DNA of 64,000 bases from a virus. The position numbers and the translations under genes were made by a program. The notes beneath the pieces are model-generated. The model saw only the letters and a list, made by a program, of their open reading frames with translations. It was not told the DNA's origin and made no database searches. The stretch lies in the UHGV virus genome UHGV-0057547; one strand, given 5' to 3'. Numbering within the stretch: the first letter of the stretch is position 1; each line of letters begins with the position of its first letter. Shown in pieces: positions 2,452 to 63,203 of this stretch.

Positions 2452-3384
2452 CTATAAATCAAATATATTTATTTTTTGCATAGATTCTTGTATATCTTTA
2501 CGTTGTTGTATATAGAATTTTTGTGATGTTGAAATATTCGAATGTCCAAGCGTATCTTTTATTTCTTGTAAAGTAATATTTGGATTTTCTCCCATTTTTG
2601 TACCTATTGTATGTCTTACATTATGAAAATGAACTCTAGGAACTCCAGCTATATCGCAACAGTCATACCAAACATTTCTTATACCTTGCTCAGTTAATTT
2701 TTCGCCATTTCTATTTGTAAATAAATATTCTCTATTTGGATTATATAATACTAATTTTTTTATAAGTTCAGCAACTTCATTATTACAATTTGTACTACGA
2801 CCAATATGACCTTTATTACCTTTAGAACGTACCATTATTTTATTGTTATCTTCTAATTTTAAATCTTCTATTTTTATTCTACTCATTTCTCCAATTCTTA
2901 ATGCAGTTGAAAATACTAATTTTACAATTACTTTATTTCTTAAATTTATATAATTACTATGACAGTTAAATTCTTCTTTATCTGTTGCTTGTAATATTGC
3001 TTTTATAATATCATCACTAAATGCTTTATCTCCTTTATAATCATTTTCCCCTTTTTCATTAACTTTAGGAAATCTATATAGACAATTATCATCTAATAAT
3101 CCTTCATTGACTAAGAAATTATAAAAACTACTCATTTGTTTTATTTTTTTATTTATTGTTGCTATTGATATATCACTTTCATCTTTTTGTTTATCTACCC
3201 ATTTAAACCAAAATTCCTTATCCATATTAACAAATTCATTAACTTCATTTATTTTTTCATCTTTGACAAATTTTTGTAGTGTACTAACATAACTTTTAAT
3301 TGTAGCTTCACTTTTGTTTAATAAATTTAAATATTTCACATATTTAAAAATGCAATTATCCATACTCATATTTTTATCTAACAT
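2452..3384 (-). CDS. tyrosine recombinase / phage integrase
   Basis: ALRIGE Arg box, HFHNVRHT (HxxR) and LGHSNISTSQKFY (H..Y) catalytic motifs; start ATG 3384 after GGAGTGG. Confidence 0.7.
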   Translation of the reverse strand: MLDKNMSMDNCIFKYVKYLNLLNKSEATIKSYVSTLQKFVKDEKINEVNEFVNMDKEFWFKWVDKQKDESDISIATINKKIKQMSSFYNFLVNEGLLDDNCLYRFPKVNEKGENDYKGDKAFSDDIIKAILQATDKEEFNCHSNYINLRNKVIVKLVFSTALRIGEMSRIKIEDLKLEDNNKIMVRSKGNKGHIGRSTNCNNEVAELIKKLVLYNPNREYLFTNRNGEKLTEQGIRNVWYDCCDIAGVPRVHFHNVRHTIGTKMGENPNITLQEIKDTLGHSNISTSQKFYIQQRKDIQESMQKINIFDL

Positions 3385-3447
3385 ATAAACCACTCCTTTA
3401 TTTATTTATATAATAATTGTAACATAAAGTTTATATAATGTCAATCA

Positions 3448-5294: not shown

Positions 5295-5408
5295 GTTTCA
5301 ATGCTTACATTTAAGCTTCCCTATTCAACATATCCTCTTTCACCTAATGGCTACTTGAGTTTGTGTGATACTCCCAGGGCGTAAATTCGGGTTTGAACAT
5401 CCCTACAT
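5295..5408 (-). ncRNA. E element copy 1 (structured leader RNA, TnpB right-end / omega-RNA-like)
   Basis: ~115-nt element between the promoter (5444-5472) and the sigma gene start. Identical to copy 2 and ~80% to copies 3-6. Compensatory substitutions in two hairpins between copies. Confidence 0.5.
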
Positions 5409-9339: not shown

Positions 9340-9454
9340 GTTTCAATGCTTACATTTAAGCTTCCCTATTCAACATATCCTCTTTCACCTAATGGCTACT
9401 TGAGTTTGTGTGATACTCCCAGGGCGTAAATTCGGGTTTGAACATCCCTACATA
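9340..9454 (-). ncRNA. E element copy 2
   Basis: Identical to copy 1; sits between promoter 9476-9530 and gene 8879..9250. Confidence 0.5.
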
Positions 9455-9672: not shown

Positions 9673-9788
9673 AGTTTCAGTGCTTTGACAAGCTTCCCTG
9701 TTCATCGTGTTCTTTTTCACTTTATATAAGCTACTCAAGTTTTTATAACACTCCAAGGGCGTAAATTCGGAACTGAACTTTCCTACAT
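9673..9788 (-). ncRNA. E element copy 3, directly 3' of tnpB (candidate right-end / omega-RNA scaffold)
   Basis: Begins ~45 nt after the tnpB stop, following a hairpin ACCGAATA..TATTCGGT, in the same orientation as tnpB. Its terminal ACAAGCACTGAAAC is duplicated 37 nt further on. Confidence 0.5.
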
Positions 9789-9832: not shown

Positions 9833-10999
9833 TTAATATTGTGCTAAGTTTATAGAGGCATTTAAGTCTCTATCCATTGTGTGTCCACATTCAGGACAAG
9901 TAAAAGTTCTATCTTTCAATTTTAATCTTTCTTTTCCTATTCTTATATATCCACATTTACTACAAGTTTGTGAACTAGGATACCATCTGTCAGCTACTAC
10001 TAATTCAATTCCATAGTCATCACATTTATAAGTTAATTGATTTTTGATTTCATTAAATCCTTGTTGCCCTATTGATTTACTTAGATGTTTATTTTTCATC
10101 ATCCCTTTTACGTTTAAATTTTCAATAACTACTCTTTGTGGTTTCTTTTCTACTATTTGATGTGTCATTGTATGTCTATAATTATTTCTTATACCTGCAA
10201 TTCTATGTTGTAATTTAAGTATTTGTTTTTCTAATTTTATTATATTATTAGTCTTATGATATTTCTTTCCTTGTCTATTCATTTCATATTTTCTACTCAC
10301 TTGTCGTTGCATACGTTTTAATTTCTTTTCTAATTTTCTAACATGAGCAGTTTTATTAATGTTTTTATATACTGTGCCATCACTACATATTGCTAAATCT
10401 TTTATTCCTAAGTCTATTCCTAATGATGTTGGATTTAATTCAGGTTTTTCTTTTATTTCTCTTAAGCCTACACTAATGCTCCAATATATCCCATTGTATG
10501 TGACTCTAGGATTTACATATTTAATTTTAGGATACATTTCGCTTTCTTCATAAGGTATATAACCTTTTCTAGCTAATTTGATTGTTCCTATCTTAGATAT
10601 TTTTACTGTATCTTCAGTGATTTTTATACGTTGATAATGTGGTGCAAAAGCTGGAGTTGTTTTATTTCTACTTTTAAATTTAGGATAACCAACATCAGGT
10701 CTTTTGAAAAAATTTTTAAAAGCATTACAACTATCTGTATATGCAATTACTAGTGCCATTGAATCACAATCTTTAAGCCATTCATTACCTTCTTGATTTT
10801 TGTAAGCAGTGAAATATTTGCTTAATCCTTTTGATGGTATAAACTTTTCTTTTTTAGGAATACTTTCATCTTCATATCTACTTTTTTGAAATGCTAAACA
10901 CCAATTATATACATGTCTTGCACATCCTGCTTGAAAGAACATTTGTTTTTCTTGTTGTTTTGTTGGATATAACCTAACTTTGAAAGTTCTAATCTCCAT
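9833..10999 (-). CDS. tnpB: TnpB (IS200/IS605-family RNA-guided RuvC-like nuclease), no adjacent TnpA
   Basis: RuvC-I IGIDLGIKDLAICSDG, RuvC-II VVIENLNVKGMMKN, zinc finger CSKCG..CPECGHTMDRDLNASINL; start ATG 10999 (MEIRTFKV) after GGGGGAATTGAAA. Confidence 0.85.
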   Translation of the reverse strand: MEIRTFKVRLYPTKQQEKQMFFQAGCARHVYNWCLAFQKSRYEDESIPKKEKFIPSKGLSKYFTAYKNQEGNEWLKDCDSMALVIAYTDSCNAFKNFFKRPDVGYPKFKSRNKTTPAFAPHYQRIKITEDTVKISKIGTIKLARKGYIPYEESEMYPKIKYVNPRVTYNGIYWSISVGLREIKEKPELNPTSLGIDLGIKDLAICSDGTVYKNINKTAHVRKLEKKLKRMQRQVSRKYEMNRQGKKYHKTNNIIKLEKQILKLQHRIAGIRNNYRHTMTHQIVEKKPQRVVIENLNVKGMMKNKHLSKSIGQQGFNEIKNQLTYKCDDYGIELVVADRWYPSSQTCSKCGYIRIGKERLKLKDRTFTCPECGHTMDRDLNASINLAQY

Positions 11000-11032
11000 T
11001 TTCAATTCCCCCATTTATCTTTATTTACTTAT

Positions 11033-13384: not shown

Positions 13385-13498
13385 GTTTCAATACTTGTTA
13401 TCAAGCTTCCCTATTCAACGTATCCTCTTCCCCTCTTATGAGGTACTCAAGTTTATATGATACTCCAAGGGCGTAAATTCGGAACTGAACTTTCCTAT
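13385..13498 (-). ncRNA. E element copy 4 (stand-alone unit: promoter, element, terminator)
   Basis: Preceded by promoter 13500-13560 and followed by a GAGAAGAATTTTTTCTTCTC terminator before the next promoter. Confidence 0.5.
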
Positions 13499-18842: not shown

Positions 18843-18954
18843 GTTTCAGTGCTCATTAGTAAGCTTCCCTGTTCAACGTGTTCTCTTTCGTTTTAAACTA
18901 CTCAAGTTTTTTACAACACTCCAAGGGCGTAAATTCGGAACTGAACTTTCCTAT
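18843..18954 (-). ncRNA. E element copy 5
   Basis: Starts immediately after promoter TTGACATTATATATAAGCTAGTATATAAT (18958-18995). Confidence 0.5.
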
Positions 18955-23142: not shown

Positions 23143-23256
23143 GTTTCAATGCTTGTAACAAGCTTCCCTATTCAACGTGTTCTTTTTCACTTTATAAGCT
23201 ACTCAAGTTTTTGTAACACTCCCAGGGCGTAAATTCGGAACTGAACTTTCCTACAT
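23143..23256 (-). ncRNA. E element copy 6
   Basis: Downstream of promoter TTGACTTTTAATAATAATAGCAGTATAAT; followed by two tiny ORFs and a terminator. Confidence 0.5.
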
Positions 23257-25709: not shown

Positions 25710-26072
25710 TTAATCCTCTAAGCTATACGCCATACACATGTTAAAATCTTTATCCTTATATTGTTCTGAAAAATCAATAACTATGAATTCGCCATTATTG
25801 CTTTTATGTTTATACCATTTTGTACCAGTTAATCCATTTAGCCATGATTTTTTACCTTTGACATCACCTTCTAACATTTCAAATACTACTTCATTATTAT
25901 TATATCTAATACCTTTTCTCTTGCTTATATCTTTTGTTAATTTTACATATTTTTCATTTTCCATATTTAACAATTCATGAGCTTTTTCTAAGCTAACATA
26001 TCCAGTTAAAACTAATTTAGATATACTTTCTCTTAATTCTATCATACCTTGTTTTTTAGTTATTTTTTTCAT
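25710..26072 (-). CDS. hypothetical protein
   Basis: ORF track, 120 aa. Confidence 0.45.
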   Translation of the reverse strand: MKKITKKQGMIELRESISKLVLTGYVSLEKAHELLNMENEKYVKLTKDISKRKGIRYNNNEVVFEMLEGDVKGKKSWLNGLTGTKWYKHKSNNGEFIVIDFSEQYKDKDFNMCMAYSLED

Positions 26073-26190
26073 AATATAAACCCTCCTAAAATTTTATTTA
26101 TTAACTATATTATAGTATAACCACTATATAAAGTCAATAAATATTTTAATTATTACAAAAGTTTTTAACTTTTGTTACTGAAGAAGGATT

Positions 26191-26526
26191 TTATTTTCCT
26201 TCTTCTATGTCTTTATTGAATAAAGATTTTATTTTCTTAGAGAATTTTTTATTACATGTCACGTCATAAAATTTGAATTCATTGTAAAAAGTATATTCTT
26301 TTAATGCTTCAAGGTGTGAATTAATCGCTTGAGTTGTAGAACTTGTATCATAATTGCAATTATCAACAATTATTTTACTTTCAAGCGTATCAATTATCAT
26401 TATTATATTTTCATGATACATTAGATAGTAACTATCATTAATCTTGCTAAATGAATGATTCCCTATTTTCATTTTAATGTTACCTTCCATTATTCCTCTA
26501 AATAATTTTTCACTATATTTTCTCAT
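26191..26526 (-). CDS. hypothetical protein
   Basis: ORF track, 111 aa. Confidence 0.45.
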   Translation of the reverse strand: MRKYSEKLFRGIMEGNIKMKIGNHSFSKINDSYYLMYHENIIMIIDTLESKIIVDNCNYDTSSTTQAINSHLEALKEYTFYNEFKFYDVTCNKKFSKKIKSLFNKDIEEGK

Positions 26527-26644
26527 ATCATACCCTCCTAAAATTCATTTATTAACTATATAATAACATAGTGTTTATATAAAGTCAATAAATATTTTAA
26601 TTATTACCAAAAGTTTTTAACTTTTGGATAACTGAAGAAGGAAT

Positions 26645-26935
26645 TTATTTTCCTTCTTCTTTTCTAAATCTGAACTCAAATATATTTTCTTTTCTATGTC
26701 CTTTGATTAAATCAATCTCACTTTCGCCTTGTTGGTCTGTATTGTGGATTAAATTATATACTAAAAATCCAACTCTTGTATCGCCTTCATATTGAAAATA
26801 AACTAAGTCATTTTTAAAATCAATTCTTATTTTATTTATCCATATATTTTCATTTATTCTTTTTTCTCTTTTAATCATGTCAATTATTTTATCCATATTC
26901 TTTAATATCTCAAGTCTTATTTGTTTTCTATTCAT
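26645..26935 (-). CDS. hypothetical protein
   Basis: ORF track, 96 aa. Confidence 0.45.
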   Translation of the reverse strand: MNRKQIRLEILKNMDKIIDMIKREKRINENIWINKIRIDFKNDLVYFQYEGDTRVGFLVYNLIHNTDQQGESEIDLIKGHRKENIFEFRFRKEEGK

Positions 26936-27062
26936 ATAAAACCCTCCTAAAATTTATTTATTAACTTTATTGTAGTATAACCACTATATAAAGTCAATAA
27001 ATATTTTAATTATTACAAAAGTTTTTAACTTTTGTTACTGAAGAAGGAAAAAATCCTTCTTC

Positions 27063-27305
27063 TTATAAGTTTTCAACTTCTATGCTTGTAATTGTATTTC
27101 CATTGCAAGTTATTAAAAATCCTACTTTACTTTTAAAGGATTTTACAAATAATGCTTGAAAAAAATTACCCTTACAGTATGAACTTTTAGGACTATAGCC
27201 TATACTGTTCATGAAAGGTATAATTCTTTTTTCACCTTTTATAATGTTTATTTCTTTTATTTCCTCTTCACTAAATATTTTTTTCATTGATTCATAATTA
27301 TTCAT
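27063..27305 (-). CDS. hypothetical protein
   Basis: ORF track, 80 aa. Confidence 0.4.
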   Translation of the reverse strand: MNNYESMKKIFSEEEIKEINIIKGEKRIIPFMNSIGYSPKSSYCKGNFFQALFVKSFKSKVGFLITCNGNTITSIEVENL

Positions 27306-27378
27306 AATGTAAACCCTCCTAAATTTTTAATTCAGTAATAAAAATTACTGTTACTGAAGAAGGAAAAAATCCTTCTTC

Positions 27379-27558
27379 TTATAATGTATCTAAAAAGTTA
27401 TTAACAATTGATATTTCTTTATCGTTTAATAATATTTCAGTATGGCAATATTTAGAATTAATGTAACTATTTTCAAAATGTATATTGTTTTCATGAAGAA
27501 AATCTATTAATAACATAGTGTCCTTTCTATTTAGTTCTATATTATAATATTTTTTCAT
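27379..27558 (-). CDS. small hypothetical protein (59 aa)
   Basis: Unlisted ORF MKKYYNIELNRKDTMLLIDFLHENNIHFENSY... with RBS AGGAGGATT. Confidence 0.35.
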   Translation of the reverse strand: MKKYYNIELNRKDTMLLIDFLHENNIHFENSYINSKYCHTEILLNDKEISIVNNFLDTL

Positions 27559-27620
27559 AATAAAAATCCTCCTAAAATTTTATTTCAGTAATTTAAAATT
27601 ACTGTTACTGAAGAAGAGAA

Positions 27621-27986
27621 TTAAATCTCTTCTTCTTCTTCTTCTTCCATTGTTTCAACTTCATTATATATTTCACTTACCATATACTCAAAAGCTAACC
27701 AGCTTAAATTATTTGCGTTTACTTCAAAATCATCACTTAAATTGTCTTTAAGTTGGTTGTAAATGTCGAATATTTCTTCCATATGTTTAATGAAGAAACA
27801 TTTTGTTTCATTATAGTATATTAATTCAGGTACTGTACCACTAATACAACCATAATTCATAATGTCTTCTAAAAATCCTTTTGGTTCTTCATAGTCTTCA
27901 ATATGGTCTAAAAGGATATCAATAACATTATCCTTTAATTCGCTTTCTCCATATAAATTTTCTAACATATTATTTATTTTTTTCAT
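27621..27986 (-). CDS. hypothetical protein, paralog family A, with poly-Glu tail
   Basis: Paralog of 25268..25630; C-terminal EEEEEEEEI. Confidence 0.5.
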   Translation of the reverse strand: MKKINNMLENLYGESELKDNVIDILLDHIEDYEEPKGFLEDIMNYGCISGTVPELIYYNETKCFFIKHMEEIFDIYNQLKDNLSDDFEVNANNLSWLAFEYMVSEIYNEVETMEEEEEEEI

Positions 27987-28103: not shown

Positions 28104-28436
28104 TTATTCTTCAATTTTAAAATTTTTAATCTCAAGTCCAAAATTTTCTTGTCCCTTTTTATTTGTGTATTTTCTTATTTTAGCTCTGAAACTTATTTTT
28201 TGTCCTTCTTGAATATTTTCTTTAAACATTTTTTTAGTAACGTTGCTTATCATATCGCATAAGCAGTGACAGCATATAAAATCATTATCTTTATATATAT
28301 TGTTGATAAGTGCTATTTTTCTGCACCCTCTTTTTTCTATTTTGTTGAAAGTTCCTTTGAATTCTACAATTGATTCATTGTATTTTTCAAGTCCTTTTCT
28401 ATATTCATATCTCCCACTTTTACTATTTACATACAT
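28104..28436 (-). CDS. hypothetical Cys-containing protein
   Basis: ORF track; CCHCLC cluster. Confidence 0.45.
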   Translation of the reverse strand: MYVNSKSGRYEYRKGLEKYNESIVEFKGTFNKIEKRGCRKIALINNIYKDNDFICCHCLCDMISNVTKKMFKENIQEGQKISFRAKIRKYTNKKGQENFGLEIKNFKIEE

Positions 28437-28889
28437 TTACAAAACCTCCCTTTTTTAAAACAAGAGATTTTATAAACTCTATACCTTTTCCGATTAACTG
28501 AAAAAGGATAAAATCCTTTTTCCGTTTTTAGGAGGAGGGAACATATTCAATTATATAATAGGATTTTTACCATTGCACTTCATACGCCCTTGTAACTGTT
28601 CAATGGCTGTTGGATAATAAAATCCAACTTTTGATTATTATCTTATAACCTTTTGAGTACTTTTCAGGAGTTCCGACTTAAAAAGTATGTTTTCGTAAGT
28701 ACTTATTAATCGTCGATTAACAGTTTACCTATATAACCTTTGGTAATAGGGTTTTTACCAAAAGCACCTTTTAAGTTTTTCCTCTTGTCAGTTGCTTAAA
28801 AGTTTTAAGATAATGCTTAGCTCTAAAAAATGCTAAGCTTCTATTATATACCTTATGCGTATAGCTTAAGGATTTTTTTTATTACTTTT

Positions 28890-29260
28890 TCTTTAATTGT
28901 ATCATGTCTTTTATTCAATGTCAACTGCTTTTTTAAAAATCTTTTAAAACTTTTTAAGTAGTTCCTAAGTTGCTTTATTAACTTAATTGTAGTAGTTCTT
29001 TTATTCAATGTCAACTATTTTTTAAAAGTTTTTTAAATTTTTTTTAAGTAGCTCTTAAACTGCTTTCCTAAGTTGCTTTTGTTTTATTATCTTAATTGTA
29101 GCAGGTCTTTTATCTAATGTCAAGTACTTTTTTAAAACTTTTTAAAACTTTTTTAACTGCCTTTCCTAAGTTGCTTTTGTTTTATTAACATAATTGTAGC
29201 ATCACTTTATTGATTGTCAACTATTTTTTTATGTTTTTTTATGTTTTTTGTATACATTAA
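28890..29260 (-). repeat. four tandem ~100-bp repeats, each carrying a minus-strand consensus promoter (TTGACA-17-TACAAT)
   Basis: Repeated TAATTGTAG..CTTTTAT..AATGTCAA..TTTTTTAAAA..CCTAAGTTGCTTT units; the promoters point toward the non-coding 28440-28880 region. Confidence 0.55.
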
Positions 29261-29572
29261 ACAATATACAAAATACAATATTCATTATAATGTATACAAT
29301 ATATCTATATTCTTTTTAGTATCAGTTCTAAAATCATTTTTCTATTTTATTTTTTTTCTACTGTTGCCGTATGACGTGATATAAGGCGTTTTAAAGACTT
29401 TTAAGATAGTTAGTGGATAATTAATCAATTAGATAATATATTCTCTTATATTGTCTTCTATTGCCTTATATTGATATATGAAAAAAAATAGAAAAACTTT
29501 TGAATAATTGTTGACATTAGATAATATTATGCTAACATTAAGATAATAAATAAATAAAGGAGATTGATAAGC

Positions 29573-29773
29573 ATGAAAAAATATAGTATAGAAATAAAGG
29601 GCAATATATGGACAAAGGAATTAATTGTTAATATATGCAAGGAAAAGAGACTATTTAAATATAATGTAACAGAATTATTAAGTGGATTAAAATACTGTAT
29701 ACAATTGAATGATTTAAGCTTTTGGAACTATCATTATTTTAAAAAACTTAAAAGAATAGAAGAAAAAAAATAG
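29573..29773 (+). CDS. small hypothetical protein
   Basis: ATG after AAAGGAGATTGATAAGC; this leader is duplicated at 31100-31140. Confidence 0.35.
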   Translation: MKKYSIEIKGNIWTKELIVNICKEKRLFKYNVTELLSGLKYCIQLNDLSFWNYHYFKKLKRIEEKK

Positions 29774-29799
29774 TAGACTTTTCTACTATTTTTTTATTG

Positions 29800-30900
29800 T
29801 ATATATGAATAACTGTTCATATGTTTAATTGTATACAACATGTAATATATAGTATAATGTATCATGTATTAAATATCTTGTATGTAATATTATGCATAAT
29901 GTATTTTGTATGCAATATATAATATACTGTATACATTATTATGTATATTGTATTATATTAGTTTACATGTTAACTATTCTCATATTGATAATAAATAATA
30001 GTTGACAAATAAACAAGTGTTCTGCAATCGAACGTAGCATACTTTATGGTGTTTGTCAACAGTTAATTTTGTCCGAAAAGTTTAGTATAAGTAAACATTG
30101 CAAACGTGAAACCATTGAAAATACTATATTATCATTTTGATAAATTTACAAATACTAAGAAAAATTCATGACCTATTTAAATCGATTCTAAGAGGGCGAA
30201 CAAAATCCCTCTTTATAGTTAATTCTTTATATAAAGTCACCCTATACACTGCTTTAAAATCGACAGTAAAAGGTCGGTATGTATTTTTAAAAAGGTGACT
30301 ATAGTTTTTATTGTATGCATTTTATTGTATACAATTTATTATCATAATGATAATATATGAATAGGTATTCAAGTATTCATATATAGAATTGTATATTATA
30401 TGAATACTTATTCATATGTTTAATTATCAATATGTAAATAGTAAACATGTTAACTATTATCAATATGATAATATATGAGTGACTGTTCATATATTATGAT
30501 TAATGTATACAATATAATATATGGTGTATACGTATGAATAAATGTTCATATATTACTATGCATAATGCATAGTGTATAATGTTTAATGTATACAGTATTA
30601 TATATTATGTATGTTATACTATGTTTAATGTATACAATATATTATATAATGTATAGTGTATGATATACTAAGTACTATGTATGCTGTATAGTGTGCATTG
30701 CATACAATATGATATACTATGTATAGTGTACTATGTACTATGTATACAATATATAGTTAACATGTTAACTACTATCAATATGATAACATATGAGTGACTG
30801 TTCATACAATCAACTGTTATTAATATAACATATGAGTGACTGTTCATAGGTTCATATGATAGTATGATAGAACAACTGTTCCTATGATGTTCTATGTTAG
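29800..30900. repeat. iteron-like non-coding repeat region (candidate origin / partition site)
   Basis: Multiple copies of ATGAGTGACTGTTCATA, AACATGTTAACTANTATCAATATGATAA and TGTATACAATAT motifs; no ORFs. Confidence 0.5.
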
Positions 30901-31137
30901 AAGAACATATGATACAAAGAACGAACTGCTTAGGATTGATTGTAAGGCGTTGGCGTTGTGTCCTTCTTATGTTATATCGTTGAGAGTGTATCTCTTCTTA
31001 TATTGCCTTGTATTGTCTTATAATAGTATATGTAAAAAATAGTGTATAGAGAAAAAAATTTTCTTAAAAATTGTTGCTAAATAAGAGAGGAACTGCTATA
31101 CTTAAGATAATAAATAAATAAAGGGGATTGATAAATA

Positions 31138-31299
31138 TGAAAAAATTATTATTAGTTTTAGGATTGGTTATTATTGCTGTATTTTTTAAAGACTGTATAT
31201 TAATAGGATTAATGGATTTTGTTGATTTTGTGGGAAACTTATTTAACTTGAATGTAATTGTTCCGATTGACTTTTTAAATACTTTATATTATCTATAAG
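31138..31299 (+). CDS. small membrane peptide (53 aa)
   Basis: MKKLLLVLGLVIIAVFF...; leader AAAGGGGATTGATAAAT duplicates that of 29573. Confidence 0.3.
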
Positions 31300-32283
31300 C
31301 AGAGAATAAGTGGGACAAAATATGTCCTACTTATTTTTTATGGTGTATTGTATACAGTATTTTTTATGTTGTATATTGTATGGTGAATTGTTTATGGTGA
31401 ATTGTTTATATTGTATACATTATTATATATTATGTATGGTGAATTGATTATAATGTATTGATTGTTGTGTATTGTATGGTATAATATAATATGAAAGAGT
31501 TTTGTACATTTTTGTCAAATATTGTAATATATAAAGCCTTGTTACACGTGGAACACGGTGAAAAAACTAAGGGGATTTTGTGGGGAATTGTAGGGAATTT
31601 TAAGGAACTTATAAGGGGGGACTCTGAAAATTTTGTGGGACATATAATAGGGGGGTGGGTCGAAAAAAGTCCCACTATAAATTCTTTGTATACAGTGTTT
31701 TAAAAAAGAGTTCTTAGAGAACTATTTACCTTTTCGACATAAAGGGGGTAGTTTTCGTAACTTTTCGTGTTTTTTCGACAATATATGAGTATAGTCCCTT
31801 TATCTACACACTATCAAATTTTATCAAAGTATAACCAAATACTATCAAATTTCATAATATTTTACTATCAAAACACCATCAAAACATAATCAATATTTCT
31901 ACATCATATACCACGTAAAATTAATATCATAAAAATACACTACGTTGTATACACTATATTGTATACACTACCCACATAACACAGTATACTTTACATTGTA
32001 TACACTGTCCATACACCACCTATTCCCTATAAATAAGTAAAAGAGGGGGTACTTTATGATAATATCAATTACTGAATCAATAATATTACCTACATCCATA
32101 TACACCATACCAATAAAATAACCACACTCTAATAAAACAACTATAAAAAAACGTGTTATTTTTGACCAATTTCAGTCTATTTTTAGCCAAAAACATACCA
32201 TTTTTGACCAATTTTGGTACATTTTTGTACTATTTTTAATCAAAAATAACCATAAAATATACGATATATCATATAAAAAGTAA

Positions 32284-32326
32284 TTATATAAAGTTATCCA
32301 CAATTTCAACAAAGTTATCCACAGAA
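32284..32326. promoter_or_regulatory. DnaA-box cluster (TTATCCACA x2 plus inverted TGTGGAT)
   Basis: Exact consensus DnaA boxes at 32284-32292 and 32305-32313, inverted box at 32320-32326. Confidence 0.55.
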
Positions 32327-32570
32327 TAATGTGGATTAAAAATAACGATAAATCACGAAAATATTAATATGACTATTTTTATATCCCATTAAGTCTCGTT
32401 TTTATAGGGTAAATAAAAAAAATGTACGGTTAACCGAATAGGAAAAAATCCTACAAAAAATACATGGTTAACCGTACTCAAGAAATTGAAGTAAATAAAA
32501 TACATGATTAATGATATATAAAAGTGATAGAATGTAAAAAGGTTAAAGAAGTAATGAAAATAGACTACTA

Positions 32571-33332: not shown

Positions 33333-33637
33333 TATTTTTCTTCTTTTCTATTTGCATTTGGAATAGTTTTTGGTTCAAAATAAACATTAGTTATATTTGT
33401 TGTTATATCTTCATTATCATTCAAATCTGTTGCGTTTAAACTATATACATCTGTATAAATATATAAGTTTTTATCTTTATCATTTATTTCTTTCAATCTT
33501 ATATCACTTGTTTCAACATATAAAATTTTAAAAGAAAGGCTATGTTAGCTAACTTTGTGATTAATTATATCTAAAATAGGCTATAATATAGGTATAGACT
33601 ATATTTCAACTAATTTACAGAAAGGATACCTAATATT

Positions 33638-34684
33638 ATGTCAAAAATAGATATAAAAGCTATGATAAAAGATTTAAAAAAGAATGAACTTACAGAGTTA
33701 ATTTCAGTAGCACAAGAAGTATTAAGTACTTTATTTAATTCTTCTGAAATTAGAGATAATGTTAAAGAAAGTAGATTTTCTAAAGGATACGAGTGCCCAA
33801 AATGTCAATGTAAAGATGTAAATAAAAATGGGAAATCTAATGGAAGACAAAGATATATATGTAAACGTTGTCGTACAAGTTTTGATGAGTTTACTATGTC
33901 CCCATTCTCTAATACAAAATTAGGGTTAGATAAATGGCTAAAATACTGCGAATTAATGATATTAGGACTTTCTATAAGAAAATGTGCTGAAGAAGTAGGA
34001 GTAGGTGTTAAAACGTCTTTTTACATGCGTCATAGGATACTTGATGTAATCAATTTATCATTAAAAAATGATAAAGTTGAAGGTATAGTTGAAGTAGATG
34101 AATGCTTTATTAAGGAGTCTTTTAAAGGGAATCATTCTAAAAGTACTACATTTGTAATGCCTAGAAATCCTAGAAAAAGAGGTAAAGGTAAAAATGATAA
34201 GAAGAAAAGAGGAATATCAAAAGAGCAGATTTGTATAGAGACAGCAATTGATAGAAAAGGAAATATCCTTATGGGTGCTGTTTGTAATGGTAGAATTACA
34301 ACAAATCAAATAGTTAACTTCTTTGACAATAAAATATGTGAAGATGCTACTTTTTGTGTAGATTCACATAAATCATATATGGGAATAAAGGATAAGTTGA
34401 ACATAGAGTTAAAGCAAGTTCCTAGAGGAAAATCAATGATAGATAGTGTTTATCATTTACAGCATATAAATGCTCTTCACAGTAGCTTTAAGAGATGGTT
34501 AATGACTTTTAATGGTGTATCCACAAAATATATCAATAATTATTTGGCTTGGTTTAAATTTCTACAACTAAGTAAGAAGAATAAAAAGAATGACCGAATT
34601 AAAGATATGCTAGTGAATGTAGCTACTAAGGATACATATGTAACTAGAGCCACTATTAGAAATAGATTCATTGAATTAACATAA
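33638..34684 (+). CDS. IS1595-family transposase
   Basis: N-terminal zinc ribbon CPKCQC..CKRC, VEVDECFI first DDE Asp region, C-terminal NNYLAWFKF. Confidence 0.6.
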   Translation: MSKIDIKAMIKDLKKNELTELISVAQEVLSTLFNSSEIRDNVKESRFSKGYECPKCQCKDVNKNGKSNGRQRYICKRCRTSFDEFTMSPFSNTKLGLDKWLKYCELMILGLSIRKCAEEVGVGVKTSFYMRHRILDVINLSLKNDKVEGIVEVDECFIKESFKGNHSKSTTFVMPRNPRKRGKGKNDKKKRGISKEQICIETAIDRKGNILMGAVCNGRITTNQIVNFFDNKICEDATFCVDSHKSYMGIKDKLNIELKQVPRGKSMIDSVYHLQHINALHSSFKRWLMTFNGVSTKYINNYLAWFKFLQLSKKNKKNDRIKDMLVNVATKDTYVTRATIRNRFIELT

Positions 34685-34817
34685 AGTAAGGAACTTTACT
34701 TCAAATTAATGAAACCATTTTATAATTGGAAAACAATTGAATACTTTATATAATATAATTAAGTTCGTAATTATTATATATTGAGAATTAATTATAAATA
34801 AAAAGGGGAAATTTTAT

Positions 34818-35525
34818 ATGGTAAAAGTAATTAGGTTAAGTTTATTTTTAATTGCTATATCATTATTTTTAACAGGGTGCAGTAATTCAAAAGAAGATAT
34901 AACTTTGGATATTAATAAAAATGAGAATTTAATTGATACTAATAATATTAATCAAATTATTTCTAATGATATTTATTCAAAAGAAACCGAAGAACAAGAA
35001 TTGATAAATATAATAGAATCAGTAGAAAAAAATAAACCTACTATGTCAGATGAAGAACGATATGATTTAAGAACTGATATATTCTTTAACTTAAATCAAG
35101 AGCAAGTTCTTAAATTTGGAGACTGTTATACTGCATTGAACCAAGTTATTTTTGATGATAGATATAAAGAATTATTCGATAAGGCAAATAATCGATGGGA
35201 TGCTTATGATAATAATGATTTATATGGAATTGTAAATACTATAAGATACATATCTAATTCAGTAAAAAATCAAGCGTTTAAAAATGATTTAAATAGAATT
35301 GAAGAATTGTGTTCATATGGATTAGAATATAGAGATATAATCGCACTTATTGATGCAAGAAGAATAATGAGAGATATTCAATATCACATATTTGAAGTTC
35401 CATATTTTAAAGAGGGAGATGCTATAGTTGAAATAAATGAAGAAGATTATAGCATATATTATGGAGCTAGTGAAGTATTAGAAGGAGATAGATATAAAAC
35501 TATAGGTATATATAGATATAAATAG
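34818..35525 (+). CDS. lipoprotein
   Basis: Signal peptide with lipobox LTGC; hairpin terminator AACATAGCC..GGCTATGTT downstream. Confidence 0.55.
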   Translation: MVKVIRLSLFLIAISLFLTGCSNSKEDITLDINKNENLIDTNNINQIISNDIYSKETEEQELINIIESVEKNKPTMSDEERYDLRTDIFFNLNQEQVLKFGDCYTALNQVIFDDRYKELFDKANNRWDAYDNNDLYGIVNTIRYISNSVKNQAFKNDLNRIEELCSYGLEYRDIIALIDARRIMRDIQYHIFEVPYFKEGDAIVEINEEDYSIYYGASEVLEGDRYKTIGIYRYK

Positions 35526-35641
35526 TTTAACATAGCCTTTTATAAAATTAGGCTATGTTTTAAATAAGTGTTGAAAATGATATAATATAAACTAAATCGC
35601 AATTGTCATATATTGTGACTTATAAGTAAAACACTATAATA

Positions 35642-39743: not shown

Positions 39744-40874
39744 ATGATAAAATCATTCACTATTAAATTATATCCAAATAAACAACAAGAATTATTATTT
39801 TATAAACATATTAATTGCCAAAGATATATTTATAATTGGGCATTAAATTTAAATAATGAATTGTATAAAAAAGATAAAAAGAAATATTCTTCAACAGAAT
39901 TAGGTAAAATACTAACGCAATATAAAAAGCAAGAAATTTGGTTGAATGAAGTTTCTAATGCAACATTAAAAGAATCAATTAGAAATTTAGACAAAGCATA
40001 TACTAATTTTTATAAGAAAAAAGCAAATTTACCTAGATTTAAAAGTAAAAAGAAATCTAAATTAAGTTTCTATAGTAGATATGAGAAAATTAAATTTTAT
40101 GAAAATAATAGAGTTAATTTAGAAAAAATAGGTAAAGTTAAATATAAATCTAGTTACAATATTGATTTTAGTAAAGAAACTTCATTCAAGAATCCACATG
40201 TTAGTTATAATGGTAGATGTTGGATTTTAACTTTTGCATTAGATATTGAAGATAAAATTGAGTTTTTGACAAATGAAGTAATAGGAATAGATTTAGGAAT
40301 TAAATATTTAGCAATTTGTAGTGATGGTGTTGTTTACAAAAATATCAATAAAGAAATGAAAGTTAAAAAATTAGAAAAAAGATTAAAGAGATTACAAAAA
40401 CAAGTAAGTAGAAAATATGAAATGAATAAGAAAGGAGGTCGTTACTTTAAGACTAATAATATTAAAAAGTTAGAAAAAGACATTAAACGTATTCATCGAA
40501 GACTTAAAAATATAAGATTGAACTATTTACATCAAACAACTGCTGATATTGTGAAAACCAAACCATACAGAGTTGTAATGGAAGATTTGAGTATAACTAA
40601 TATGATGAAGAACAAATCAATAGCTAAGCAAGTATCTAAATTAGGCTTGTATGAGTTTATAAGACAAATGAAATATAAATGCGAGTGGAATGGTATTGAA
40701 TTTATACAAGTAAATAGATATTATCCTTCAAGTAAAAAATGTAGCAATTGTGGAAATATTAAAAAAGATTTGAAGTTATCAGATAGAGTTTATAAATGTG
40801 ATAAATGTGGATTAGATATTGATAGAGACTTTAATGCTAGTTTAAATCTTATGAATTATGGATTATCACATTAA
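39744..40874 (+). CDS. tnpB: TnpB (IS200/IS605-family RNA-guided nuclease), no adjacent TnpA
   Basis: IGIDLGIKYLAICSDG, VVMEDLSITNMMKN, CSNCG..CDKCGLDIDRDFNASLNL. About 55% identical to the first TnpB over the C-terminal half. Consensus promoter TTTACTTTTAATAAAATTATGAGTATAAT upstream. Confidence 0.85.
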   Translation: MIKSFTIKLYPNKQQELLFYKHINCQRYIYNWALNLNNELYKKDKKKYSSTELGKILTQYKKQEIWLNEVSNATLKESIRNLDKAYTNFYKKKANLPRFKSKKKSKLSFYSRYEKIKFYENNRVNLEKIGKVKYKSSYNIDFSKETSFKNPHVSYNGRCWILTFALDIEDKIEFLTNEVIGIDLGIKYLAICSDGVVYKNINKEMKVKKLEKRLKRLQKQVSRKYEMNKKGGRYFKTNNIKKLEKDIKRIHRRLKNIRLNYLHQTTADIVKTKPYRVVMEDLSITNMMKNKSIAKQVSKLGLYEFIRQMKYKCEWNGIEFIQVNRYYPSSKKCSNCGNIKKDLKLSDRVYKCDKCGLDIDRDFNASLNLMNYGLSH

Positions 40875-44200: not shown

Positions 44201-46543
44201 TTATCCATAGACAATTACTACACCTAACCATTCTGTGGTATAAGTGAAAATAAACTCATATGTTTTATTAGCTGAAATTGTTGGAATATTTCCATTTTGC
44301 CACTTACAAGTTGGTAATGTTAAAGTTAAATCTGCTGTTGTACTAAAGAATAAATGAATTTTTGTAAAAGAAGTAACTGCTGGTAATGTAATTTCAGTAC
44401 CATTTACGATAGTAGCAGTTTGATATTTGTCTGTTGTTAATGATAAAGTAGTACCTGATATATTAGTAGTTACTAGAGTATTATTAATTTTATCGTCTAA
44501 GTATTTCTTAGTAACTACATCCATATCATCAGTAGGATTTTTACCTACAGTTAATTTACCTGCATACCAAGCATTACCTTGCCAATCTAAAGTGTGTGCA
44601 TTTGACCTTTTAGCATCACCAGCACCATTACCTACTATATGAGCATATTTATTAGCAGTATCTTCTATATTATATTTACCTTGTACATGTTGATATTTAG
44701 AAGAAGCTTTAGTATTATTACCTTCTGCATGTGAAGATTCACCTGAAGCTGTTGTCGTAGAGCCTTCTGCATGTGAACCATAATTACCTGAAGCTGTTGT
44801 ATTATTACCTTCTGCATGTGAACCATAACTACCTGAAGCTGTTGTATTATTACCTTCTGCATGCGGACCATAATCACCTGAAGCCTTTGAAGACCATCCT
44901 TCTGCATGTGAAGAATAACCTGAAGCCTTTGAAGACCATCCTTCTGCATGTGAACAATCACCTGAAGCTTCTACATCTTCTCCCGTAGTAAAACTATTTT
45001 CTCCTACTGTAGTCCCTTCTTTTCTTCCTAAACTTACACTTCCTGTAAATACTGGATTATTTGTAGTAGCATATCCATTCAAACTTTGATGTTCTGTTAA
45101 ATATTGACTATGTGTATGTGAAGTTACATCACCAGTTAATTTAGCTTCTATTTCTGCTTTAGTTATATCACTATTTTTCTGTGCTGTACTTGGTGCATGA
45201 GCTGCTTGACTATGTGTATAAGCAGCATCATAATTAGATTTTAAAGCATTAGTTAAGTCATTAGTAGATAAACCTTTACCTGTTTCTTTTTTAACGAAAT
45301 TTGAGGTATCAACAGTTGTTCCTCCTGAACCTTTATTTGCATCGAAGTATTTCTTAGTAACTACATCCATATCATCAGTAGGTTCTTTACCTACAGTTAA
45401 TTTACCTGCATACCAAGCATTACCTTGCCAATCTAAGGTATGGGCATTGGAATTTTTACCATCCTCACCATTACCAACTATATGTGCATAAGTACCATTT
45501 AAGTCTTCTATATTATACTTACCTTGCACGTGTTGATTTTGAGAAGAAGCAATAGTACTAGCGCCTTCTGCGTGAGAATTTTCTCCCGAAGCTGTTGTAC
45601 AATTACCTTCGGCATGAGAACAATATGCTGAAGCAGTCGTACTATCACCTTCGGCATGCGAAGATTCACCTGAAGCTGTTGTATATTTACCTTCTGAGTG
45701 AGAATTTTCTCCTGAAGCAGTCGTACTATCGCCTTCTGCATGTGAATAATAATTTGAAGCAGTTGTAGAACTGCCTTCAGCATGAGAAGCAACACCACTA
45801 GCTATTGTATTACTACCTTCAGCATGTGAACCATAATCACCTGAGGCAGTTGTACCTTCACCTTCTGTATGTGAACCATTACCTGAAGCAGTTGTATCAC
45901 TACCTTCTGCATGTGAATAATCGCCTGAAGCTATTGTCATAGAGCCTTCAGCATGTGAATAATCGCCTGAAGCTGTTGTCATAGAGCCTTCAGCATGTGA
46001 ATTCATACCTGAGGCAGTTGTACCTTCACCTTCTGCATGTGAACAATCACCTGAAGCTTCTACATGCATACCTATAGCACTACTTCCTGCTCCTATATCT
46101 CCTACTCTTCCTAAACTTATACTATTTTGTAATACTAAATCAGTTTCTAAATATTTACTATCTAAATATTTAACTTCTTCTTCGTAAATAACTAAATCAG
46201 TAAAAGTATTAGTAGTAATATCATTTTTACCTAGTTCAATAAGTAACATTATATTTGTTAAATCCTCAAATGCTTGTATACTATAATTGCCAATACTACA
46301 TACAATACAATTACCAATTTCTTCACTTACTAATAAAGTACATAATTTTTTACTACCTAAGAATTCTATATAATATCTTCTATCTTTATTAATAGAAACA
46401 TTATTTACAGTAATATTATCATTTAATTTTATATCACTAGCAGGTACAGTAACTAATACTTTACTAGAAATAGTTTTTATTACATTATTATCATTGTTAT
46501 TTCCATTGGTTTTATCTTCTCTAATAAACCCCATTAAATTCAT
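44201..46543 (-). CDS. tail-fibre / adhesin-like protein with Hep_Hag-type heptad repeats and an internal module duplication
   Basis: Tens of SHAEG..TTASG 7-residue repeats; two copies of HTLDWQGNAWYAGKLTVGK-PTDDMDVVTKKY; ~130-bp near-identical DNA direct repeats at 44520-44650 and 45350-45480. Confidence 0.55.
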   Translation of the reverse strand: MNLMGFIREDKTNGNNNDNNVIKTISSKVLVTVPASDIKLNDNITVNNVSINKDRRYYIEFLGSKKLCTLLVSEEIGNCIVCSIGNYSIQAFEDLTNIMLLIELGKNDITTNTFTDLVIYEEEVKYLDSKYLETDLVLQNSISLGRVGDIGAGSSAIGMHVEASGDCSHAEGEGTTASGMNSHAEGSMTTASGDYSHAEGSMTIASGDYSHAEGSDTTASGNGSHTEGEGTTASGDYGSHAEGSNTIASGVASHAEGSSTTASNYYSHAEGDSTTASGENSHSEGKYTTASGESSHAEGDSTTASAYCSHAEGNCTTASGENSHAEGASTIASSQNQHVQGKYNIEDLNGTYAHIVGNGEDGKNSNAHTLDWQGNAWYAGKLTVGKEPTDDMDVVTKKYFDANKGSGGTTVDTSNFVKKETGKGLSTNDLTNALKSNYDAAYTHSQAAHAPSTAQKNSDITKAEIEAKLTGDVTSHTHSQYLTEHQSLNGYATTNNPVFTGSVSLGRKEGTTVGENSFTTGEDVEASGDCSHAEGWSSKASGYSSHAEGWSSKASGDYGPHAEGNNTTASGSYGSHAEGNNTTASGNYGSHAEGSTTTASGESSHAEGNNTKASSKYQHVQGKYNIEDTANKYAHIVGNGAGDAKRSNAHTLDWQGNAWYAGKLTVGKNPTDDMDVVTKKYLDDKINNTLVTTNISGTTLSLTTDKYQTATIVNGTEITLPAVTSFTKIHLFFSTTADLTLTLPTCKWQNGNIPTISANKTYEFIFTYTTEWLGVVIVYG
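44520..44650. repeat. intragenic direct repeat copy 1
   Basis: CTTAGTAACTACATCCATATCATCAGTAGG..TTTACCTACAGTTAATTTACCTGCATACCAAGCATTACCTTGCCAATCTAA matches 45350-45480. Confidence 0.6.
45350..45480. repeat. intragenic direct repeat copy 2
   Basis: See copy 1. Confidence 0.6.
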
Positions 46544-62285: not shown

Positions 62286-63203
62286 ATGGCAAAAAAGAAA
62301 TCTCATGAGGAGTTTGTTAATGAATTAAATATAAAAAATCCTAATATAAAAGTATTGAATAAATATGTAAATGTGTCTACGAAAATAATGGTTAAATGTA
62401 TAATTTGTGGAAATGAATGGATGGCAATACCTGGTAGTTTATTAAATGGAACTGGGTGTCCAAAATGTGCAAATAAAAATAAATCAAATAAACAAAGAAA
62501 GACAAAAGAACAATTTATAGAAGAGATGAAAATTATTAATCCTAATGTTAAAATAATCGGTGATTATATTAATAATCATACGAAGATAAAATGTGAATGT
62601 TTAATATGTGGGAATATATATTTTATGATACCTAAAAATTTAAGGAAAGGGCAAAATTGTCCTGAATGTGCTATGAAACAAAGAGTATCTAAAAAATCTA
62701 AAATTCATGAACAATTTATAATTGAATTAAATGATATAAATAAAAATATTAAAGTATCAAATAAATATATAAATGCAAAAACAATCATGGAATGTTCTTG
62801 TGATATTTGTGGTCATAAATGGAAATCTAATGCTGATAATTTATTAAGAGGTCATGGGTGTCCAAAGTGTGCAATAGAAAATAGTAGAGGTGAAAATAAC
62901 CATAATTGGAATCCTAATCTTACACAAGAAGATAGAGAAAATAAAAGAAATTATATGGAATATAAAGAATGGAGAAAAAATTGTTATGAACGAGATGATT
63001 ATACTTGTCAAGTTACAGGGAAAAGAGGAGTAGAATTATGCGTACATCATTTATATTCTTATAATAAATATTATTGTTTAAGAACTGCATTAGATAATGG
63101 TATAACAGTATCTAAAGAAATACATGAATTGTTTCATAAAATATATGGACGAGGAGATAACACATTAGAACAATGGGAAGAATTTATTAAAAGTTTAGAA
63201 TAA
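62286..63203 (+). CDS. HNH homing endonuclease with three N-terminal zinc-ribbon repeats
   Basis: Three ~50-aa repeats each with CxxCG..W and GxGCPxCA; C-terminal CQVTG..VHHLYSY..HELFH HNH motif. Confidence 0.65.
   Translation: MAKKKSHEEFVNELNIKNPNIKVLNKYVNVSTKIMVKCIICGNEWMAIPGSLLNGTGCPKCANKNKSNKQRKTKEQFIEEMKIINPNVKIIGDYINNHTKIKCECLICGNIYFMIPKNLRKGQNCPECAMKQRVSKKSKIHEQFIIELNDINKNIKVSNKYINAKTIMECSCDICGHKWKSNADNLLRGHGCPKCAIENSRGENNHNWNPNLTQEDRENKRNYMEYKEWRKNCYERDDYTCQVTGKRGVELCVHHLYSYNKYYCLRTALDNGITVSKEIHELFHKIYGRGDNTLEQWEEFIKSLE

Follow-up and report, generated by a model that had tools for sequence, protein, structure and literature searches.

What does a phage keep in four kilobases of DNA that hold hardly any genes? 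The question is raised by positions 28437-32570 of a 64,000-nucleotide (nt) stretch of UHGV-0057547 (the window), which has a G+C content of about 23% and, as judged from overlaps, makes up positions 64086-128085 of a metagenomic phage contig of 204,438 bp (ENA ERZ1310023, NODE_1_length_204438). All genes of the window from 1 to 28436 lie on the minus strand, followed by a 4.1 kb gap poor in open reading frames (ORFs) and then by genes of mixed orientation. An earlier examination of the letters alone (the sequence-only reading) had described a 5-kb non-coding region here, with a candidate replication origin and an unannotated transcript. The large gap is real, although it is smaller than was claimed and, as it carries two conserved small genes, not wholly non-coding. 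The region is probably a conserved control hub heading the leftward early-gene cluster of an SPbeta-like phage. The more valuable half of the earlier observation is a structured leader RNA at the left end of the gap, which has the following parts and partners.

28437-28889, minus strand: structured 5' leader RNA of the first early gene (gene 1), about 450 nt, with a start near 28889 placed from the proximal promoter
28851-28871, minus strand: small 5' hairpin
28552-28850, minus strand: core domain of 299 nt with a four-way junction (consensus fold)
28531-28539, minus strand: conserved, CU-rich single-stranded segment CCCUCCUCC
28500-28522, minus strand: hairpin GAAAAAGGA/UCCUUUUUC, -10.4 kcal/mol
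28431-28483, minus strand: site-hiding helix, which takes in the Shine-Dalgarno sequence (GGGAGG, 28445-28450) and extends to the AUG (28434-28436)
28104-28436, minus strand: first early gene, 110 amino acids (aa), of a family found only in this phage clade
28055-28095, minus strand: complement segment just downstream of gene 1, complementary over about 40 nt to leader positions 28457-28497 (the 5' half of the site-hiding helix), a candidate long-range stem

Folded as minus-strand RNA, the leader reaches -122 kcal/mol, compared with -79.6±5.0 kcal/mol for shuffled sequences (z = -8.5). An alignment of 18 leader sequences (15 distinct, 83-100% identical) gave a consensus of 120 base pairs, with 99.3% of the cells paired across the 15 variants. 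Compensatory double changes are found at 20 of these 120 pairs, against 8.7±1.6 in column shuffles, none of 500 of which reached 20, while controls in which the partners were slid by 1-3 columns gave 0-5 double-change pairs. The compensatory changes are spread over nine different helices and occur in different subsets of the sequences. Wobble pairs amount to 151 G-U cells versus 10 A-C cells, five pairs being G-U in every sequence, and the opposite strand would pair just 91.4% of the cells. The excess of G-U over A-C and the drop in pairing on the other strand mean, therefore, that the RNA has the sense of the four promoters that precede it. The segment 28437-28889 is a genuine, covariation-supported structured RNA on the strand of those promoters.

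Relatives of gene 1 were found on contigs of 147-206 kb, five of them catalogued as viral in IMG/VR, and on smaller fragments, from many metagenomes; none was found among the GTDB species genomes. A pattern scan of IMG/VR for the leader RNA returned only the same five contigs. A scan of Rfam 15 gave no leader match at the gathering score, nor a convincing one at E up to 5, and the sole hit that overlapped the leader within this limit was a PyrR site on the opposite strand, scoring 24 bits against a cutoff of 54 bits. The leader RNA is of a previously undescribed kind that is not in Rfam.

At the base of the core domain stands an invariant 10-bp helix (28841-28850 paired with 28552-28561), beyond which the domain splits into hairpin P2, the long P3-P9 arm and two more hairpins, P10 and P11. 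The two stable hairpins to which the sequence-only reading had pointed are both present and both covary among the relatives: TTGGTAA/TTACCAA (28736-28765) lies within arm P3-P9, and GAAAAAGGA/TCCTTTTTC is the hairpin at 28500-28522. The latter has no U-tract on the RNA strand, the T-run flagged there in a scan being that of the opposite strand, and no convincing intrinsic terminator was found between the core domain and gene 1. Predicted at -13 to -20 kcal/mol, the site-hiding helix is recovered in every one of the seven variants of this part of the leader. The segment is best read as a structured 5' leader, because transcription would read through into gene 1 without a terminator and because a helix hides the ribosome-binding site and AUG of that gene. 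Of the proposed non-coding transcript, the structured RNA on the promoter strand therefore stands, while a free-standing RNA is not proven, as the RNA runs into gene 1.

In every variant, leader positions 28457-28497 and the segment 28055-28095 are predicted to form a duplex of -41 to -49 kcal/mol, and the most divergent variants (L004, L020) carry matched changes. The pairing may represent an alternative fold through which the ribosome-binding site is released after transcription of gene 1, an RNase III-type stem, or both. In the mechanism that we propose, the leader would act in cis and set the translation and/or the processing of the first early message. The site-hiding helix would have to open, and one route would be the pairing of its 5' half with the sequence past gene 1; a long stem of the RNase III-substrate type would then form around the gene and leave the ribosome-binding site free. 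The core domain would be the sensing or protein-binding part. Modelling of the gene-1 protein gave a weak hint of an oligonucleotide/oligosaccharide-binding (OB) fold (predicted local distance difference test, pLDDT, 73; best Foldseek E 0.004, template modelling (TM) score 0.3-0.45), and because this hint is weak, autoregulation by gene 1 would be a guess.

A second, trans-acting role for the leader is possible, since four promoters imply a very high output of early RNA. That the RNA works mainly in trans as a free early transcript, serving as a decoy or sponge (of a host protein or a defence system) or as a primer of the ColE1 type, is very unlikely. Four tandem strong promoters do precede it, its closed 299-nt domain far exceeds the size needed to occlude a ribosome-binding site, its loops and the CCCUCCUCC strand are invariant, and processing at the long-range stem could set the RNA free. 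Against this stand the missing terminator between domain and gene 1, the hairpin at 28500-28522 without a U-tract, and the physical and structural coupling of the RNA to the gene-1 ribosome-binding site. A primer role is disfavoured because transcription from the promoters heads away from the field of repeats and DnaA boxes further right.

The leader is preceded by four sigma-A-type promoters.

28924-28896, minus strand: promoter 1, TTGACA-17-TACAAT, 11/12 consensus positions
29014-28986, minus strand: promoter 2, TTGACA-17-TACAAT, 11/12
29123-29095, minus strand: promoter 3, TTGACA-17-TACAAT, 11/12
29220-29193, minus strand: promoter 4, TTGACA-16-TACAAT, 11/12

All four of the tandem promoters that had been reported in repeats of about 100 bp were thus recovered, with a spacer of 17 in three and of 16 in the fourth. 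Three of the four have an extended -10 TG, and each has an A/T-tract upstream and lies within a tandem repeat of about 90-109 bp that carries GCAACTTAGGAA. The tandem promoters recur in 15 of 15 relatives, mostly as four copies by the strict pattern and as 1-3 copies in the most divergent. They are not alone in the window. The pattern TTGACW-N16-18-TAYAAT occurs 34 times, compared with 0.94±1.0 expected (about 35 times chance), and 33 of these sites are on the minus strand between 479 and 29220, one before almost every small early gene, with a common spacer motif, TTGACW-N3-RATAA. The four tandem copies are the first of an early-promoter family and are not special as promoters. The density of early promoters resembles that of the host-takeover modules of virulent Bacillus phages, and with its 33-promoter early cluster and its host assignment (see below) the phage would be useful as a model of host takeover in Peptostreptococcaceae.

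In the intergenic regions that were read (25.6-28.1 kb), each of the small early genes comes with a hairpin, a promoter and a ribosome-binding site of its own. These cassettes, of about 90-150 nt (26053-26206, 26518-26661, 26917-27064, 27294-27380 and 27547-27637), consist of a hairpin GAAGAAGGA...TCCTTCTTC that lacks a U-tract, another hairpin (CAGTAAC...ATTACTG or ACAAAAGTT...AACTTTTGT) and, after these, the promoter and ribosome-binding site. The cassettes may serve RNA processing or stability.

By its gene content, the phage, of about 204 kb, is SPbeta-like. Proteins of the window and contig gave Pfam or PHROG matches to MrpR, YopX, YorF, YonK, YonG_N, an HU-like protein, endolysins and antirepressors, and further SPbeta-type matches to sigma-like proteins and a RecD2-like helicase. 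The nearest sequenced relatives are the 'big plasmidial' phages of Clostridioides difficile (C. difficile), of about 132 kb, which share gene order at a protein identity of about 30%; the gene order is that of C. difficile phage LIBA2945 (phiCD5763/LIBA2945, MF547663). The 'big plasmidial' phages replicate and live as plasmids (PMC5786514). A megablast search of the region against phage and plasmid collections returned no match. Five relatives, 79-90% identical overall, were compared, and the gap is more conserved among them than the flanking genes.

32150-32500: 95-98% identity among the five relatives
Leader core: 93-97%
29950-30200: 92-98%
Gene 1: 79-86%
GT92 glycosyltransferase gene: 76-77%

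The remaining 3.6 kb of the gap hold two small genes, repeats and palindromes.

29249-29305: period-7 array 1 with TGTATACA, directly upstream of the distal promoter
29511-29796, plus strand: small gene cassette 1, with promoter (29511-29538), ORF of 66 aa (29573-29773) and terminator (29770-29796)
29804-29955: palindrome TATGAATAACTGTTCATA (29804-29821) and period-7 array 2
29960-30300: ultra-conserved ORF-free segment with inverted GTTGACAAA...TTTGTCAAC and a plus-strand terminator-like hairpin (30259-30278)
30326-30860: palindrome cluster and period-7 array 3 (30490-30760)
30399, 30474, 30533, 30789 and 30831: TATGA-N8-TCATA palindromes within this cluster
30326-30860: other palindromes between the arrays, GTTAACATGTTAAC and TTATCA-N3-TGATAA
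30870-30881: SOS-box-like GAACAACTGTTC, the only perfect GAAC-N4-GTTC of the window, in a 100%-conserved block
31074-31340, plus strand: small gene cassette 2, with promoter-like site (31074-31102), ORF of 53 aa with a hydrophobic N-terminus (31137-31298) and terminator (31308-31340)
31332-31485, plus strand: period-7/14 array 4 (TATGGTGAATTG units) and promoter-like site (31458-31485, TTGATT-16-TATAAT, with TG)
31490-32250: oriented repeat block around a flip in GC skew
31571-31655: G-runs
31731-31778: TTTTCG(A/T) repeats
31812-31883: YATCAAA repeats at a spacing of about 10-11 bp
31935-32020: inverted array 5
32158-32250: phased ATTTTTGACCAA repeats
32294-32302 (plus), 32315-32323 (plus) and 32330-32338 (minus): DnaA-box trio, TTATCCACA, TTATCCACA and TAATCCACA
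32420-32476, minus strand: intrinsic terminator of the GT92 glycosyltransferase operon, a 12-bp perfect inverted repeat followed by a U-run

The repeats and palindromes may be binding sites for phage and host proteins. The iteron-like field recognised by the sequence-only reading is concentrated in the gap, which holds six of the seven window copies of TATGA-N8-TCATA, all three of AACATGTTAAC and 16 of 19 of TGTATACA, the last with 13-19 copies in each of 15 relatives. Tandem Repeats Finder located period-7 (and 14/21/42) arrays at 29251-29303, 29852-29953, 30501-30757, 31332-31474 and 31935-31971, the first and fifth of which run opposite to the other three. Phased short repeats of 7-12 bp follow (YATCAAA five times, TTTTCG four times, ATTTTTGACCAA twice), with no Rep gene adjacent. 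The plus-strand GC skew of the non-coding DNA runs at +0.4 to +0.7 from about 31025 to 31700 and at -0.67 from about 31775 to 32225, flipping near 31750. Within the ultra-conserved segment 29960-30300, about 340 nt are almost invariant even in the most divergent relatives and could encode a second small RNA; its GTTGACAAA and TTTGTCAAC form a 9-bp inverted repeat around 44 nt.

Both small ORFs are real protein genes, as judged from their reading frames, which survive dozens of substitutions and a 3-nt indel that stays in frame; L010, one of the relatives, has a 1-nt deletion in the 53-aa gene. A third ORF of 70 aa (31491-31703) was rejected as a gene, having frame-shifting indels and a lost start codon in relatives. 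The upstream regions of the two small genes are paralogous (29350-29499, plus strand, and 30890-31100) and include 10-bp TATATTGTCT repeats; the first of them folds with z = -5.1. The family of the 66-aa protein was found only within the phage clade. Its product was considered as a ribbon-helix-helix protein binding the period-7 arrays (omega/ParR-like) and set aside, as the predicted order was beta-alpha-beta-beta-alpha with one of five models confident, and a Foldseek search with the model gave no significant PDB match. It was also discarded as a counterpart of the SPbeta antirepressor Sar/YopT, which differs in position.

The right-hand 1.2 kb of the gap, with the oriented repeats and the DnaA-box trio, would be the likeliest seat of a cis-acting DNA function: an origin, a packaging (pac) site, or both. 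It is possible, though less likely than not, that the repeat field and boxes form a phage (or plasmid-prophage) replication origin, at which host DnaA, with or without a repeat-bound phage factor, would open the DNA. Three consensus DnaA boxes within 45 bp had been claimed; the cluster exists, about 10 nt to the right of where it was first put, and its two perfect TTATCCACA boxes, 21 bp apart, are the only ones in the window, but the inverted third, TAATCCACA, matches at just 8 of 9 positions. The boxes are invariant in 15 relatives, lie in the most conserved 350 bp (95-98% identical) and adjoin no protein-gene promoter, and several of the repeat families are phased at about 10-11 bp. The GC-skew check suggested with the original claim is compatible with an origin, the cumulative G-C minimum lying at about 29.0-29.5 kb within the 81.5 of 204 kb that were read (about 40% of the replicon); for LIBA2945, whose genome is complete, the global minimum is at 123 kb (maximum 57 kb), within the 1.57-kb non-coding stretch that is syntenic with the gap, and relatives of this type live as plasmids (PMC5786514). 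SPbeta replication is unstudied and the origin of the family is not known (PMC8270828), and therefore nothing contradicts an origin placed here. Skew in these genomes follows gene orientation, however, which confounds the check, as a minimum is to be expected at any divergence point, and the minimum itself forms a shallow basin, 3 kb away from the boxes. Searches of Pfam, PHROG and PDB with the larger flanking ORFs, a part of those in 23-56 kb, found no adjacent dnaA or rep gene, as the sequence-only reading had said, and no adjacent initiator, helicase-loader or partition gene. There is also no unwinding stretch of low stability beside the boxes (80-bp nearest-neighbour windows, 32200-32560; z at most +0.86); the least stable stretches of the window lie elsewhere, which is a weak test of an unwinding element in a genome of 23% G+C. 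Not one perfect TTATCCACA box is present in the whole genome of LIBA2945. At 45.2-46.0 kb of the window, five extra TTATNCACA sites, near-matches to a DnaA box, were put down to repeats in the coding sequence of a YadA-like gene for an adhesin or fibre.

The origin, packaging and regulatory or partition readings are not mutually exclusive. It is doubtful that the repeat field is purely transcriptional (operators of an MrpR/SroF-like protein, LexA or another regulator of the lysis-lysogeny decision) or a plasmid-partition centromere, with no part in replication or packaging. The window does carry two MrpR-like genes (523-2297), and the long operators that MrpR/SroF occupies in SPbeta are dispersed among early promoters (PMC10516654; 10.1101/2025.11.27.690993); in the gap, the palindromes are flanked by divergent promoters, and a perfect SOS-box-like site stands in an invariant block. 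A single perfect GAAC-N4-GTTC is, however, not beyond chance, at least one being found in 21% of shuffles; no repeat family of the field is shared with the 29 other early promoters; and about 0.7 kb (31490-32250) has no gene to regulate. In terms of the MrpR/SroF operator (SPBRE), the MrpR-like genes and a spacer motif common to the early promoters are present, and no repeat from 29240-32520 recurs at the other early promoters. For partition, the syntenic region of LIBA2945 has a ribbon-helix-helix gene, a ParM-like gene and upstream repeats, whereas no ParM, ParA or TubZ was detectable in the window, and ORFs of 319 and 470 aa considered as partition genes had no informative PDB sequence match. 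That the right-hand block (about 31300-32500) is a pac site, with terminase subunits binding oppositely oriented arrays that flank the cut, we consider unlikely, although it is a serious rival of the origin. The opening point of SPbeta-like genomes maps to a large intergenic region between the divergent genes yonR and yonP, followed by a conserved block of about 250 bp (10.1101/2021.11.22.469490; PMC8270828), and the present gap is comparable in position. In phage Goe11 this region has a similar non-coding skew flip (+0.7 to +0.9, then -0.6) to that at 31025-32225; arrays 4 and 5 are mutually inverted, and the block is as extremely conserved as expected of a terminase recognition site. On the other side, the late (yonN to yonG-like) cluster starts about 20 kb off and not directly opposite, there is no sequence similarity to the SPbeta region, and a pac site would leave the DnaA boxes unexplained. 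The skew flip is a noticed resemblance and not an established pac signature, LIBA2945 having just a weak version of it, and the pac sequence of SPbeta-like phages is not known (PMC8270828). The conserved 1.2-kb block is a concrete candidate for an SPbeta-like origin, a pac site or both. It is improbable that both halves of the gap are at once what they might most ambitiously be, namely a new class of 299-nt RNA with a function of its own, made in bulk from its four promoters at the very outset of infection or induction, and an SPbeta-group origin that recruits host DnaA; such an RNA could detect a metabolite or the state of the host, or trap a host or defence protein.

Several points weigh against the view of the gap as a conserved control hub with a structured leader. 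All relatives are 83-100% identical in the leader and the RNA family is limited to one phage clade; because the sequences are such close relatives, the compensatory changes represent a limited number of events. The leader would not be general to the phage group but an invention of this clade, because the leader of LIBA2945 is non-homologous and not unusually structured. Transcript start sites, the 3' end and any processing are predicted from sequence, the matched changes flanking gene 1 could reflect two copies of one protein-binding DNA site, and no binding protein was matched to any repeat family of the gap.

The best clue to the host is an IS1595-family insertion (33500-35600) to the right of the gap, comprising a transposase gene (33638-34684) and a passenger ORF of 235 aa, and lacking from some relatives (L006 among them). 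Copies of the transposase with 100% identity are present in Intestinibacter bartlettii DSM 16795 and further Peptostreptococcaceae genomes, so the host probably belongs to this group. At the left end of the window are three consecutive genes of the tyrosine-recombinase fold (523-1386, 1407-2297 and 2452-3393, minus strand); two have matches to MrpR, the master repressor of SPbeta, in its N-terminal domain, and the third is an ordinary integrase-family member, making the trio candidate lysogeny regulators. The YadA-like gene (44201-46543, minus strand) has a G+C content of 30-38% in a 23% genome; its 780-aa product shows head repeats like those of YadA and trimeric autotransporters (PDB 7o23, E 1e-15), and it is probably an adhesin or fibre gene gained from elsewhere. 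An HNH endonuclease gene (62286-63203) and a LAGLIDADG endonuclease gene just past the end of the window break up the start of the late (terminase-proximal) cluster. The minus strand also carries six RAGATH-18 RNA motifs of 57-68 bits (cutoff 44.9), at 5317-5379, 9362-9424, 9694-9759, 13407-13471, 18865-18927 and 23164-23227. This motif serves TnpB nucleases of the IS607 type as the scaffold of their guide RNA (PMC11061315). A single copy, at 9694-9759, directly follows a TnpB gene (9833-11014), the other five standing solo in early intergenic regions, and a second TnpB gene (39744-40874, plus strand) has no RAGATH-18 motif at the gathering score.

Among known systems, the yonR-yonP region of SPbeta, phi3T and Goe11 is alike in being a large non-coding stretch that heads a leftward cluster of small early genes, in phages with MrpR-like repressors and proteins of the YonG, YonK, YonN, YorF and YopX types, and in its sharp plus-to-minus flip of GC skew in non-coding DNA (PMC8270828). 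It differs in size and setting: the SPbeta region is about 1 kb and faces the late operon directly, whereas the gap here is 4.1 kb, holds two small genes and lies about 20 kb from the late cluster. The Goe11 region has no tandem array of near-consensus promoters, and no perfect DnaA box was seen in it on reading the sequence. The syntenic region of LIBA2945 shares the gene order on both sides, the position at the head of a leftward early cluster and the cumulative G-C minimum, and it has a consensus promoter (12/12) followed by a leader of about 575 nt. There is one promoter where the present phage has four, the leader is non-homologous and folds with z = -1.5 compared with -8.5, and DnaA boxes and TGTATACA arrays are lacking; an nhmmer search found no homology of the present leader to the long LIBA2945 leader or to SPbeta-like DNA. 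LIBA2945 has adjacent Xre-like, ribbon-helix-helix and ParM-like genes that are missing here. In its record (121686-123410), AT-rich repeats are followed by a ribbon-helix-helix-like ORF of about 80 aa, which looks unannotated, and by a gene named 'hsp70' (ParM-like), an arrangement that looks like a ParR/ParM/parC cassette. No ParM-like or other partition ATPase of a ParMRC-type locus was found in the window.

Origins built from iterons and DnaA boxes, as in plasmids and in oriR of the plasmid-prophage P1, have a Rep gene beside the iterons and a defined AT-rich unwinding element. The gap is alike in its DnaA-box cluster beside short phased repeat arrays, on a large mobile replicon with plasmid-living relatives, and unlike in that neither an adjacent Rep gene nor an AT-rich unwinding element was found. 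Tandem strong early promoters with a processed leader are known from virulent phages such as T7 (A1-A3, with the RNase III site R0.3) and, with upstream A-tracts, SPO1 and SP82. The likeness to these lies in stacked host-type promoters before the first early gene, upstream A/T tracts, stem-loops between early genes and a candidate double-stranded processing site flanking the first gene; we know of no counterpart of the 299-nt multi-branched leader domain in T7, SPO1 or SP82. GOLLD and ROOL are likewise multi-branched phage RNAs of several hundred nt with covariation support; to our knowledge they are not 5' leaders. The present RNA differs from these and from riboswitches in having no Rfam 15 match and in being restricted to a single phage clade. 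Large RNAs with many branches and covariation support are rare, and new ones have tended to uncover new biology. With riboswitches the leader shares its site in a 5' leader followed by an element that occludes the ribosome-binding site: it has a covarying fold on the transcribed strand and a location between promoter (ending at 28896) and AUG (28436), with no terminator-type platform. It heads the very first transcription unit of a widespread gut phage of about 200 kb and, coupled as it appears to be to the translation of gene 1, offers a compact and testable system.

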